Origin: Selaginella moellendorffii
Lineage: Eukaryota; Plantae; Lycopodiophyta
Assembly: GCF_000143415.4 (NCBI RefSeq)
Contig: NW_003314291.1
Location: 1,468,517 to 1,532,516 of the forward strand
Length of the DNA: 64,000 bases
Direction of reading: 5' to 3'
The notes under the pieces are model-generated. The model did not search any database. It saw only the letters and a program-made list of their open reading frames with translations, and was not told the DNA's origin. Below are positions 52,601 through 64,000 of the stretch, piece after piece (position 1 is the first letter of the stretch; every line of letters begins with the position of its first letter). Both the position numbers and the translations under genes were made by a program.

Positions 52601-53554
52601 TATGCACGATCAACACTCAGTTGAAACTAAAGTGAAGACCATGTGATGGACTTATATTGGTACACAACCTCCTCATAAACAAGGCTATAATACAGGTATA
52701 AACATCTTAACTTCAAACAACTAAGTTGAACATCACTATCCTCAGCCAAGGCGCAAGGCCACCAAAACCAAATCAAAATCAGCGAGAGCTCACTACTCTC
52801 ATAGAGTCTAACAAAATGCAAAGTGCAACTTGCCACCAAGCATAATGTTACAAAAGAAAGGCATAATGGTCACCTTTCTTAGAAAAATGCAACGAAGCTC
52901 TATTTCGTTAAAGTGGGATTTATTCAGTAAAATGGGACTAGGTACAAATTTTCAAGTATTTAAAAATGACGTGAAATTATATGTTTTTTGTCCAGGGGCT
53001 AGACATATCTGGGGCATGGTGACTAGCGCGGTGACTTTGTGTCCAGACTGAGTCCATCTGGTTGTATAATAAATCTCATTGTCAAGGTGAACAAGCCGAA
53101 TCTGAAGCTAAAGAAGAGCGATGGCATGCGCGCGCACACTATTTGTTTGTTCATTGAGCATGTGGTGAGCTTTCCAAGATGAACGTCATTCCTATTAGCC
53201 AGACATATAACTTAATGGTGAGAACATTTAGATATTATTCAATGTTATCTTTTTCTAACGAATCTAATTGTGAAGGTGTAGCAAGAGGCATTGCTAGTAT
53301 GGAGAAGTCATTTAACTCATTTGACCCTTAGTGTATTTTCATGAAACTAAATAACATTCATATTATTAAGGAATTTCTCTAGTACCTTTTTTTTATGACA
53401 TAGAGGCTTGCATTTCTTTCAAAGATGATTTAGTAAAAGGCCTGAGGGCACATGCCATTCTATTTCTCAAACCGGTATTAAGATATACTAGTGCAAAGGG
53501 AAAAAGGTATTTGGTGATCAAGTAAATGGCATGAGGGCACACGCCATTATAAGC

Positions 53555-53812
53555 CTAAGCGCTAGTGGACACCTCCTTTTTGGTACTCTCAGCGGTACTA
53601 TCATCCTTCTCCGGGTCAGCTGTTTTGCTTTGGATTGTTGTCTCTGACGTTACTGGGGCATTCTCGATAGTTGTTAATGTTGCCGTTTGTTCAGAAAAAT
53701 GATCACCTGGAGTATAGTACGGGGAGTTTGGAAGACTTATATATTCTACATCTTCACCTATCTCCTTCTCCGTCTCCTTTTCTACCTCACTTACAGATTT
53801 TGTGCTTGCCAT
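53555..53812 (-). CDS. Possible small acidic ORF or exon (MASTKSVSEVEKETEKE...) within the transposon
   Basis: Open, protein-like acidic S/T-rich frame in an AT-rich region; no recognisable domain. Confidence 0.3.
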   Translation of the reverse strand: MASTKSVSEVEKETEKEIGEDVEYISLPNSPYYTPGDHFSEQTATLTTIENAPVTSETTIQSKTADPEKDDSTAESTKKEVSTSA

Positions 53813-54525
53813 GAGAACGCTCTTCACCCTAAAATATGGAGTTCGTTGTGTTATAAAAGGAAACCAACACACACGCTGCAAGGGAATGATGGTACATAAA
53901 GCACGTAAGCCCACAATATGGGTTTATGTGCCATTAATATGGGCCACACGCCATATTATTAGATTTATGCACGTGTGATTGGTAAATGCATATGTCACAT
54001 CATCTTTGTTTTACCTCACACACTATATCAGGCCTAATGAACCATATCACATGTGCGCACATGCTATATATATGGAGAAGTATTATGCAAGGATAGAAAA
54101 ATTCAATGCATGATTGTGGAGAGCAATGGCATGAAGCCACATGCTAAATAACATTTTAGAGAAAAAATTAAAATAAAAACATGCAAACAGTACTAAGTGG
54201 ACCAAGACTTAGAAGTGCACAATTGAATGAGGTATTTCTAATAAATATTTCACTCACCTCATATAGGAATGGCTACCACTCTCAAATGGCGTATCGCCTC
54301 ATGCCATCACCTCGCAATTTGTTATAACAATCCGATGAATTCATATTCGGTTTGTTCACCTTGAACTTTAAGTAAGATTTGCTAGAACAACTAAGAATTT
54401 ATACTTGTTATTTGTATCATCTCACCTAGGAATGGCGTAAGGCCACATGCCATCACGCCTCCTCTGATTCAGATTCGGATTGTTCACCTTGAAATAAAAT
54501 ACATTAGAAACTTAGTAAAGGAATA

Positions 54526-60738: not shown

Positions 60739-63700
60739 ATGGTAAGTCTTTTAGGCCAAGTAGAAAATGGCATGAGGCCACATGCCATTCAGTAGCAACA
60801 TTGGCATGCACCGATTGGGCTCTTGAGTGCAGTCCGGTTACAGATGGCGTGTAGCCTCACGCCATCTTAGGATGCAGCCTCAAGACATCTGATGCAGTGG
60901 TGAATGGCGTGTGGCCTCACGTTATTTCTAGCTACTAGCTTTTCATCTGTCAGCTCTAATTGTTGTGCATTTCTGAACAGGCGAGGAATTGCGTTCTTCT
61001 TCCAGCCACTGTCAATGTGGATGCAGAGAAGGGGGAGGAGCTCACCAGTTGGACTTTCGGGATGGAAGGCGAGGATCTGAGGCTGTACAACACAGATGGT
61101 GGGAGAAAAGAATGCATGGGGATCCTCATCCAAGTGACAGACACTCCATGCAGTTCCATGCAAGAATATGGACTGGCACTTGTGGTAGAGACAGCGTCTA
61201 CCTTCAAGATCCACCTTGCACATCCTAGTGGCTTCCTGGAGGGGGGCAGCGGCTATGAGGAATTCCTAGAGGGAGCTAGGGAGAGGTTGTCTAGGAGGCC
61301 CACAATTTCAAAGACGCTGCAGGTCTATGAAGATCATATGGAATCCACGGACCTCACTTGTGGCGATGTTCAAAAACTATATTCCAACATTGAGCCGTTG
61401 AGAGTGCCTCCAGTTCGCGAAGCGAAGGGGAAGGGGGTCGATCTGGAAACTACCCCGAAGCAGAAAAAGGTGGTCAAGCTCAGGCCGACGTCCGACTCTC
61501 CTGCTCCAAAAAAGAAGCTACTCGGTGATGCTATTGCCTCGGGTTCGAACACTACACCCACCAAAAAGAAGAGCCGCAAAGAGCAGAAAGAGCAAAAAGA
61601 GGTAGCAAAAATCGTCGCAGATAATAGTACTTCTTATTATTCCAACAAAGTATATACAATCGACGTGAGCCGTATCGACATCCAAAGCAAATACAACCAC
61701 AGGCTAGTATCTGATGAGTGGGTGGAGAAACTGAAGCAGAAGATGCTGGCAAGTCCAGTAACACCCGACATCGCAGACGTGATCCCCTACTACCGAACAA
61801 TGAAGGGCGAGACGAGGTTTCCAGACTTGATCAATAGGAAGGTGTTGGACGATCAGAACATCCGGTTCTATGCCGTCTCCGGGCAGCATTCTAGCTTGGC
61901 GATGCAACAGATAGTTGTGGATATTATGGTGGGCGAGGAGGTGAAGAAAGTTTTCAAGACAAGAGTTGTCTGCCTGATAAAAGGCAACTCGCCCCTCTGA
62001 TCTATCATATACATTTCCCACGCGCAGAATGTCAAGCAAGAAACGTGTTACAAATCGGGTCTGCATGAGACATTGGCACGAACACGAAAGCTCTGGGTTC
62101 AACTAAAGAAGCCACAAAAACCAGGACAAGGACGTGCACTAGCAACTAGCGTCTGGCAGGTAAGCCTCGTTGCATGTGGCATAGCATGTGGCCTCACACC
62201 ATTTCCATTTCAGGAATTCTCGAGTCTTCTCTCGAAAACACTGGGGGTCAATGACACACTTAGCATCCATAACATTCTACTCGCGACAAAAGTTGTTTTT
62301 GACAAATGGGTAGATGTGCTGAGGAGGTACCATGACGGGGAGTTGCTAAACTCAATGGGTGTGGAGGACGGCCGGAAGCCCAATGATTTGAAGCTCAACG
62401 CCTTGCGTTTTTCGCGGTCTCTAGACGACGACGACCTTCTGACAGTGGCTAATGCTCTTCTACGTGGTGAGGTAGTCTTCAACAAGACCAAAATGACTCC
62501 TGGCCATATTGTGACATACGAGGACTTGTGCACGACTCTGAGAGCTCGTGCGCTGTTGAAGGATTGGATCTTCGAGCAAGTGGCCGTGGAGAGGGTGAGC
62601 ATCGACACCACGCAAGAGATGATGGAAGAGTTGGAGTTGTCAAATGAAGACATCGACGAGTACGTGAAGGGGGCCCCCAAGTTCATCGATCTACTGCGGG
62701 ATGCCACGAAAAGTAAAGCTAAGAAGTTGGATCAGTATCCAAATTTCATTAAGAGGGATGTCGACCGCCGGCTTCAGAAACAGCTCAACCCCGCAGTAGA
62801 GGCCTATCGAGAACCTTACCGGGTATACATGAATTCGGATGAGGATCAAAGGTGGAGGAGCATCGTTTCCCGTGGAGATGAGCAGGTCAAGAACATCTTT
62901 TGTGTGATGGACTTCACAAACGAGGAGATCACTCATGCAGATGAACTCAGCTCCATCATTGACTTAATAGTGGGACTTGCGGAGGTGGAATCTTCAGTCC
63001 ACTATATGATCTACGACTCCGAATCCTATCACAAGTTCTGGAAGGCCTTGAACGAGGTGAAGGCTCGGTTGAAAGGCAAGGAGATGCAGGAGATCCATGG
63101 GATAATGGCTAAGAAGAAGATACCGACGAATGTCCGCATCTTCACACTCGCCCTTATTATTGGTCTTGCAGCAGAGTGGGACTGGAGTGACTTCCCAGCT
63201 TCATTCGACAAGGCCGATCAAATTGATCTGAGGGAGGTCAATTTACCCGTGCCTAAGGAACTGAAGACGGCTATGGAGCTTTTGAATCCAGAGAAAGCTC
63301 CAGGTGCAGCATGGGAAATGCTCAGCTGGGTCTTCAACGCAATAGCGGGTGGGTCATCTGCTTCCGACTCCAAGGGCAAATGCGTTGTCGAGTACAACTG
63401 CGGCGGACTATTCTTTCGAGCTGCACTACTCAAGGGTGTCCCGTGTGTTGCGGTGACAAACTCCATTGAAGAGGTGACTTCAATGGAGCATATAATTACA
63501 GTTGCCAAAGAAAAACAGTATCTTCTCTGTGAACCTGGTGAGTACGCACTTTAAGTTTAAATGTTATCTCACAAGCTCTGTATGCAAGAGCGTGGCCACC
63601 CCCAGATGCTGAAACGGCGTTAACAGCTACTGTTGAAGATACCCATGTTGGGCCGAGCTCACAACCTGCACAAGGTAAGGTCACGTGAGGCCTCACGCCA

Positions 63701-63802
63701 TTTTGATTATAGATCGTTGTGAATATTCAGACACGAGGACTGAAAAGCGCACTGGTGGCGCGTCGAAGAAGGACAAACAGACAAGCAATAGGAAAAAAGG
63801 AG
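60739..63802 (+). CDS. Transposon-encoded protein with ParB/Srx-like domain and degenerate N6A/N4C DNA-methyltransferase-like C-terminal domain; one in-frame TGA (61998-62000); 3' end uncertain
   Basis: ATG 60739-60741 | intron 60742-60980 | long exon; ORFs 60960 and 62073 are in the same frame; in-frame intron 62160-62213; further donors at 63538, 63675, 63803. Motifs YTIDVSRI..YNHRLVSDEWVEKLKQKM...FYAVSGQHSSLAM and EKAPG...GKCVVEYNCGGLFFRAALLKGVPCVAV. Confidence 0.65.
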
Positions 63803-64000
63803 GTACAAATTATATTTGCAATGGCGTGTGGTCTCATGCCATTCACGTTTTTCTCATCTCATCGTCTTCGAAGGGTGCAAGAACGTGCAGAAACCATGTT
63901 AAGACAGTTGGGTGAGGATACAGTCCTAGGTCACGCACTAAAACAGGCTATGGATGTCTTGTATTTTGAGATGGAGACTCGGCCAGATGATTTTCCCAAG

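Follow-up and report, generated by a model that had tools for sequence, protein, structure and literature searches.

Dispersed 22-bp palindromes of a Selaginella moellendorffii DNA transposon as candidate sites of a predicted ParB-like protein encoded by the same element

A 64,000-nt stretch of the Selaginella moellendorffii genome (contig NW_003314291.1, positions 1,468,517 to 1,532,516; hereafter the window, meaning the whole stretch analysed) carries near its right end a 22-bp palindrome that recurs many times. What reads this word, and why is it kept? The initial annotation, made from the sequence alone, regarded the copies as selected protein-binding sites or, alternatively, as hairpin units that create or mark introns, and it pointed to a ParB-like protein. 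All palindrome sites of the window sit inside one multicopy DNA transposon with two divergent genes, one for a transposase and one for an accessory protein (gene 2). The explanation that we hold to be reasonably probable is that the palindromes are parS-like sites onto which the gene-2 protein, ParB-like and encoded by the element itself, would load to keep the element active.

A scan of the 64-kb window with the consensus ATGGCRTGNGGCCNCAYGCCAT gave 20 copies with at most three mismatches, all of them in 53,437–63,842, against a mean of 0.02 and a maximum of 1 in shuffled sequence, so the repeated palindrome is real. The first 53 kb of the window contained no copy at this threshold. When up to six mismatches were allowed, 26 matches were found in 53,121–63,842, that is, six weaker copies besides the 20, and only five weak ones (5–6 mismatches) in the first 53 kb. 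Eighteen of the 20 copies were counted as independent because the remaining two are mirror images within a perfect 234-nt foldback. The spacing between the sites is about 60–1,600 bp. In prokaryotic genomes the motif had two single exact matches and no clusters, and the viral contigs contained neither the motif nor a related transposase.

The identity between copies was 0.79 in the palindrome core and 0.30 in the flanks. The flanks agreed at a median of 12/40 positions, compared with 11/40 for random pairs; thus, the earlier statement that the flanks differ and that the copies are not simple tandem duplicates held good, apart from the two foldback mirrors. Within the half-site consensus ATGGCRTGW-GG, T7 was conserved in 36/36 half-sites and both C5 and T2 in 35/36, while position 6 was A or G. 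The two arms of a copy vary independently: position 6 pairs in 8/18 copies (8.5 expected) and position 9 in 4/18 (7.4 expected). That pairing is no better than expected is due to a fixed slight asymmetry together with the presence of sites in both orientations. On the sequence evidence, the pattern agrees with recognition of the two half-sites in double-stranded DNA rather than with a stem.

The variation among the sites predates the insertion at least partly, as the three sites in the 239-nt gene-2 intron deviate identically in multicopy contigs. Among four sites compared with other copies of the element, only 62,181 was restored there, at one base. Decay of methylated cytosines after insertion does not account for all of the variation.

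The element is 47–48% coding, and none of the 18 independent palindromes was found in coding sequence (P 1e-5), or two of 18 (P 0.001) if a 114-nt segment of the transposase gene is coding. At three or fewer mismatches, 52.9 kb of host genes and retroelements contained no copy either. The copies are thus not found equally in exons or in unrelated sequence. The avoidance of coding DNA that the initial annotation had claimed is significant, but its strict form, in which all copies are confined to introns, untranslated regions and spacers, does not stand, since two sites of the window are possibly coding and a related element (L011, see below) has two copies in coding linkers.

The numbers of copies ascribed to the individual introns (Table 1) matched the sequence. 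Each of the four predicted gene-2 introns contains at least one copy, and those of 54 and 57 nt hold hardly more than splice sites and one palindrome; meanwhile, 12 of the 20 copies are not in predicted introns. Homology gives good support to the 54-nt intron: the RefSeq Selaginella homolog P0032 has a 19-residue gap there that ends in the same WQEF junction, the genomic open reading frames (ORFs) of other homologs end or begin there, and other copies of the element have a TGCAG acceptor. The 239- and 57-nt introns are predicted from splice signals and the reading frame. The 114-nt 'intron' of the transposase, which had been proposed along with them, is doubtful: its donor is weak, its frame is open in other copies, and it falls within a hypervariable, length-varying insertion of the relatives' alignment. 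As the stop that closes this segment is a decay mutation of this copy (CAG in other copies), its two palindromes may be in a coding linker. Contigs of run X20, whose RNA nature is only guessed, were unspliced across 55,465–56,094 and 60,721–61,013 and are uninformative on splicing.

The initial annotation had proposed to check whether related families carry different palindromes, and they do. A metagenome scan was made for related transposases, and in the best 80 of 214 loci (883 kb; locus numbers begin with L) the word of the window was absent at four or fewer mismatches. Six lineages besides the window had their own palindrome each, 16–22 bp long and located in flanks and introns: TTGGCCATATGGCCAA in L001 (9 matches), CTCAAACTTNGGTTTGAG in L002, L003 and L006 with one copy in L007, GTCGGCTGCCCGCCGAC in L011 (6 matches), CACGGGTGNNCACCCGTG in L012 (10 matches) and also L033, CTTGGTGGCCACCAAG in most of L013–L080, and ATCTAGTGGCCAYTAGAT in L018, L021, L025 and L070. 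The cores are GGCC-centred in three lineages. Among the 13 closer loci, seven had at least two copies of a word, one had a single copy, and five (L004, L005, L008, L009 and L010, short contigs only) showed no recurring palindrome. The seven lineage-restricted words follow the transposase tree, which comes from a quick search only with 21 chosen rows, and the off-diagonal matches were three stray single ones. Since the words were taken from the same loci in which they were scored, the near-empty off-diagonal is the informative part of this comparison.

The word of the L013–L080 group gave 84 matches in 26 of the 36 non-redundant loci, compared with 1–3 per shuffle, and none in the 68 kb of transposase-coding matches. 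Its density was about 5 per 10 kb at 2–4 kb upstream and 0–2 kb downstream of the transposase. In L011, the transposase gene has a frame-shifting 125-nt GT-AG intron, within which lies one copy of the family word. Family words form tandem arrays in L012 (47 bp) and in the L013–L080 group (49 bp), and in other lineages they are dispersed, as in the window. Taken with the avoidance of coding DNA and the independence of the arms, the different words in related lineages favour the view of the initial annotation that these are selected, putative protein-binding sites. Another dyad, TTGCG-N13-CGCAA, was seen in 4–5 copies just past the shared end of the element in L071:12,312–13,660 and L072:8,683–9,124, and it probably derives from a neighbouring element.

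Gene 2 is interrupted in this copy by a single stop at 61,998, which is a decay mutation, as the frame is open in other copies. An initial query with the gene-2 C-terminal ORF yielded no homologs, and the gene-2 homolog search gave 17 proteins (P numbers) at E <=0.001, the named ones coming from Selaginella, Calypogeia and Adiantum. P0017 and P0019 were rejected as homologs, being repeat-driven chance matches. Sequence searches of Pfam, NCBIfam, PHROGs and PDB assigned gene 2 and its homologs to no meaningful family, except for NIF in P0022 and P0041. The structural model of the homolog P0009 matched PadC (Z 8.1; root-mean-square deviation 3.3, 100 aligned), KorB (Z 7.8) and sulfiredoxin (Z 6.0), and its N-terminal domain was PH-like at Z 5–6; in a Foldseek search of the same model, Noc and ParB ranked first. 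These models agree with the earlier ParB-like lead, and the gene-2 protein is predicted to hold a ParB/sulfiredoxin-type fold. The invariant motif of its ParB-like domain is GQH followed by S or T.

The C-terminal half of gene 2 was approached through the homolog P0008, for which the Atlas structure search returned N6_N4_Mtase and phage ParB-methyltransferase clusters. PF01555 was named for the aligned part in eight of ten structural rows, one of which met the bar of the tool. At the sequence level, this half had no match in Pfam or PDB. In fold and motif order, the P0008 part resembles the beta-class N4/N6 DNA methyltransferases. These enzymes carry a catalytic DPPY/SPPY-type motif and an intact S-adenosylmethionine (SAM)-binding motif. 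Here, only the Asp of the catalytic motif is retained (DFTN, DLRR, DATT, DAAH, DSAN, and DIHY in L048), and the SAM motif of gene 2 in the window reads EYNCGG. With a single conserved Asp left of the DPPY-type motif, the methyltransferase-like domain is less likely to methylate DNA than to bind or shield it.

Other domain arrangements were seen among the homologs. In the fern protein P0041 (Adiantum), the gene-2 homolog is joined to a phosphatase domain of the NIF/FCP1 type, and three loci have weak NIF-like remnants on the upstream side of the transposase, at L025:2182–2334, L048:207–515 and L066:5308–5550 (E 3e-4 to 0.007); the effector part of the gene-2 protein may be exchangeable. The annotated Selaginella genes P0008 and P0032–P0034 have the helical and methyltransferase-like half only and no ParB domain, and they are either truncated models or domesticated pieces. 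The language-model features of P0015 resemble DUF3723 (score 0.93, 151/256 shared), which is described as a conserved cargo gene of fungal Starship elements (bioRxiv 2021.12.13.472469). As a lead from sequence features, DUF3723 may be a ParB-like self-binding protein.

From these observations, we infer recognition, spreading and a chromatin effect of the gene-2 protein, as follows. A dimer of the protein would recognise the two half-sites of a palindrome, load at the dispersed sites, and then coat or spread over the element. The coated element would stay transcribed in spite of host cytosine methylation, as is the case for VANDAL with VANC, and the methyltransferase-like domain would contribute by binding or shielding DNA. 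The sites would multiply first as tandem units, after which the flanks would drift and the cores be kept. The site and the protein would diverge jointly, so that each family would serve only itself. A bolder extension, which we regard as possible though doubtful, is that seed-free land plants have a transposon-borne ParB/parS system, in which a ParB-fold clamp would load on family-specific palindromes in introns and spacers, spread over the whole element and, helped by a methyltransferase domain put to new use, shield the element or mark it against host silencing. Plants would then have a second anti-silencing system, independent of the known one and with no fewer than seven natural protein–site specificities, and eukaryotes their first sliding chromatin regulator of the ParB type.

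Several results weigh against a ParB-like reader. The Foldseek E-values for ParB were weak (0.05–0.3), and the fold was modelled on a homolog that is only 19–24% identical. Canonical ParB has an arginine-rich motif that binds cytidine triphosphate (CTP); GQH[ST] replaces it here, which makes a CTP-driven clamp uncertain. A recognition domain of the helix-turn-helix type was not identified, and the confidently modelled helical region after the ParB domain had no fold matches. The window's own C-terminal model (mean predicted local distance difference test score 58) matched nothing in the PDB or viral libraries with Foldseek. Of the 36 non-redundant loci in the L013–L080 group, which is in heavy decay, only two showed gene-2 remnants, and no gene 2 was detectable in L040, which has 14 sites and a terminal repeat at either end. 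The consensus of the upstream regions had no significant match to gene 2 (best domain E 0.08). Gene 2 and a site word were found together in only two lineages, for which reason co-evolution is only suggested. Beside the window, this concerns L048, a distant element whose like two-gene layout speaks for the gene-2 reading: a divergent SGQH-bearing gene 2 stands next to the transposase, its intron corresponds in position, and the family word occurs at 14 sites. The assignment of gene 2 in L048 rests on hidden Markov model matches (E 0.001 and weaker) and motifs seen by eye, and a profile comparison of L048:4220–4909 with alignment A4 was negative.

In the main alternative, the words would be internal binding sites of the transposase, serving to pair the ends or to switch on transcription of its own family. 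The words do track the transposase tree, they cluster near the ends (29 matches within 2 kb downstream), and they persist in L040; moreover, the AtMu1 transposase alone is described as activating cognate copies sequence-specifically (preprint 10.64898/2026.08.24.746577). On the other side, six window sites lie in gene-2 introns 8–11 kb from the left end, and the same element encodes a protein with a predicted ParB fold. A milder objection is that the window shares a separate terminal repeat with L001, L004 and L008, in which the palindrome is either different or undetected. We consider a transposase reader unlikely. Host transcription factors or chromatin proteins could also be the readers, the element having collected their sites, and the GGCC-centred cores of three lineages would agree with this. 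However, the host genes and retroelements of the window lack the word, and 16–22 bp with one word per lineage suits an element-encoded reader better. We therefore regard a host factor as improbable.

Nor does it seem much more probable, to our judgement, that the words are unselected and were spread by slippage, template switching or gene conversion, surviving wherever they break no protein. Tandem arrays in some relatives, as well as the foldback and direct duplications of this copy, are what such processes would leave behind, but a sharp core beside random flanks requires selection on the core only, and the pattern recurs with seven different words. The least probable reading, which we consider very improbable, is that the words work as hairpins, of RNA or of single-stranded DNA, by which small introns are created or marked. 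The presence of the word in every predicted gene-2 intron, and the near lack of anything else in the two shortest, speak for this claim of the initial annotation. It was not upheld: compensatory change is absent, position 9 carries a fixed mismatch, most copies are outside predicted introns, and Rfam gave no match. In addition, the position of the 54-nt intron is common to homologs, including L048, whose intron there had no scored copy of its family word. Double-stranded sites read by the gene-2 protein thus remain the explanation that we prefer.

The coordinates of the element and its parts are collected in Table 1. The left end was fixed by an element-free paralogue of the flanking repeat (near 26,517) and by the different flanks of other copies. 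The terminal direct repeats are candidate transposase sites, and a similar word was found in L001, L004 and L008, 280–300 nt or further downstream of the end of the transposase match. The true 5' part of the transposase is missing from this copy, and other copies continue differently at 57,331. The protein is 36–38% identical to five full-length relatives, and the alignment has three conserved acidic motifs, HDKMDQ, QxDN and GHTHEDID, which presumably link it to the Sola DDD transposases. A search of the open-licence literature returned no papers on DUF7869. Terminal inverted repeats starting with AACAC were present at both ends of the relatives L025, L040, L046/47 and L069, and one of these four end-bounded relatives, L069, had a 4-bp target duplication (TTGT); the right end of our element lies outside the window. 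Sola transposons are described as making 4-bp target site duplications (PMC10741241). Thus, the terminal sequences of the relatives point to Sola, short of proof.

Table 1. Coordinates of the transposon and its features in the window
Feature	Coordinates	Strand	Remarks
DNA transposon copy	52895..64000		Left end 52,895-52,897; right end beyond window
Terminal direct repeats TTCGTTAAAGTGGGA / TTCAGTAAAATGGGA	52897..52945	+	Candidate transposase sites, distinct from palindrome
Palindrome cluster downstream of transposase	53121..54453		53437, 53526, 54126, 54286, 54432 at <=3 mismatches; 53121, 53933, 54046 weaker
Transposase, DUF7869 (Sola-like)	54529..57331	-	Pfam E 1.7e-40; one decay stop 55,729-31
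114-nt transposase segment	55729..55842	-	Palindromes 55762, 55819; in-frame intron or coding linker
Perfect 234-nt foldback	57287..57754		4 palindromes, 2 of them mirrors; peculiar to this copy or its assembly
Palindromes between two divergent genes	57817..59424		57817, 58474, 59324; weaker 58402, 59403
Predicted gene-2 intron, 239-nt	60742..60980	+	Palindromes 60767, 60844, 60904, degenerate 60867; GTAAGT donor, AG acceptor
Gene 2 exon: PH-like domain, basic linker, predicted ParB/sulfiredoxin-fold domain (SGQHS)	60981..62159	+	
Gene-2 intron, 54-nt	62160..62213	+	One palindrome, 62181; supported by homology
Gene 2 exon: helical domain and degenerate N4/N6 DNA-methyltransferase-like domain	62214..63551	+	
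Predicted gene-2 intron, 57-nt	63675..63731	+	Palindrome 63680; GTAAGG donor; next exon open in frame; inferred
Predicted intron start	63804..63844	+	Palindrome 63821; other copies differ after 63,844

The family is multicopy; its contig records number 46,184 in one run and 124,915 in another, many of them at 90–99% identity. Most differences between this copy and the others are of the C-to-T type. In 1.6 kb, 28 such changes were counted, 19 of them at CG or CHG, where 36% of the cytosines stand, a distribution in keeping with methylation by the host. The foldback is a spacerless inverted duplication in place of the transposase 5' part, and other copies diverge at 57,331 and 57,754; it is either a recent foldback or an assembly artefact. 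Two direct duplications of 209 and 464 nt, 97% identical, lie between the genes in 58,157–60,087. Outside the element, the first 16 kb of the window hold plant genes (glucanase, pentatricopeptide repeat, fasciclin and kelch F-box), and 20–52 kb consist of retroelement remains, amid which 35,400–49,700 contains four long repeats that are related to one another and have internal tandem arrays of 12/23/35 bp.

Bacterial ParB/parS, Noc/NBS and KorB systems have repeated long palindromic sites dispersed over the replicon. The element of the window likewise has long palindromes dispersed over it, and the ParB N-terminal fold is predicted for its protein; unlike those systems, it has no ParA, no identified helix-turn-helix and an altered nucleotide-binding motif, and it adds eukaryotic introns and a PH-like N-terminal domain. 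By its description, Sola1-1_Ec32 of the brown alga Ectocarpus is closely similar, being a Sola-type element whose accessory gene, on the opposite strand, encodes a protein with ParB-like and N4/N6 DNA-methyltransferase parts; it also has a 4-bp target duplication and AAC-starting termini (PMC12477816), which resemble the AACAC of the L013–L080 group. It differs in its host and in that the methyltransferase motifs are degenerate in the Selaginella element; palindromes are nowhere mentioned in the main text of that paper. PAG3, a ParB-like accessory protein of a Bostrychia Plavaka element, has tandem inverted-repeat arrays beside its gene and was proposed to bind and modify its own transposon (bioRxiv 2025.02.11.637652). 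There, the transposase is of the EnSpm/Plavaka type, the effector is a 2-oxoglutarate oxygenase, and the arrays are next to the gene, while the section on PAG3 mentions neither dispersed sites in introns nor words specific to a lineage.

In the accounts of VANC/VANDAL in Arabidopsis, an element-encoded protein binds family-specific motifs of 8–10 bp, and both binding and hypomethylation were shown (PMC5735166); the same logic was demonstrated experimentally for Spm TnpA, also with 8–10-bp motifs (10.64898/2026.08.24.746577). As in the Selaginella family, the motifs described there are concentrated in non-coding parts and introns, multiply as tandem repeats and diverge with the lineage. In contrast, they are short, and those of VANC21 are arrayed in one orientation, whereas ours are palindromic candidate sites of 16–22 bp. 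The gene-2 protein has no VANC or TnpA match, and it accompanies a DUF7869 transposase as a ParB-fold accessory protein instead of being a VANC homolog on a Mutator element. The system of the window would work like VANC/VANDAL but is not a member of it, and its predicted ParB fold lacks the canonical CTP motif.

As far as these descriptions go, the idea of a self-binding ParB-like protein is already in print for algal transposons (Ectocarpus Sola1-1 and Bostrychia PAG3) as a proposal. In the open-licence literature, we found no account of palindromes of this kind for Sola elements of land plants. New here are the land-plant case, the dispersed intronic sites and the lineage-specific site sequences, which make the idea testable: the window and the related loci provide exact candidate sites in seven naturally occurring versions, and in at least two elements the word is accompanied by the gene. 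Homologs of the protein are present in a liverwort, a lycophyte and a fern, so that the system is no peculiarity of algae. If the proposed role of the gene-2 protein is true, it would be a new route by which transposons escape silencing in plants, and it would provide a set of orthogonal 16–22-bp DNA-targeting pairs.

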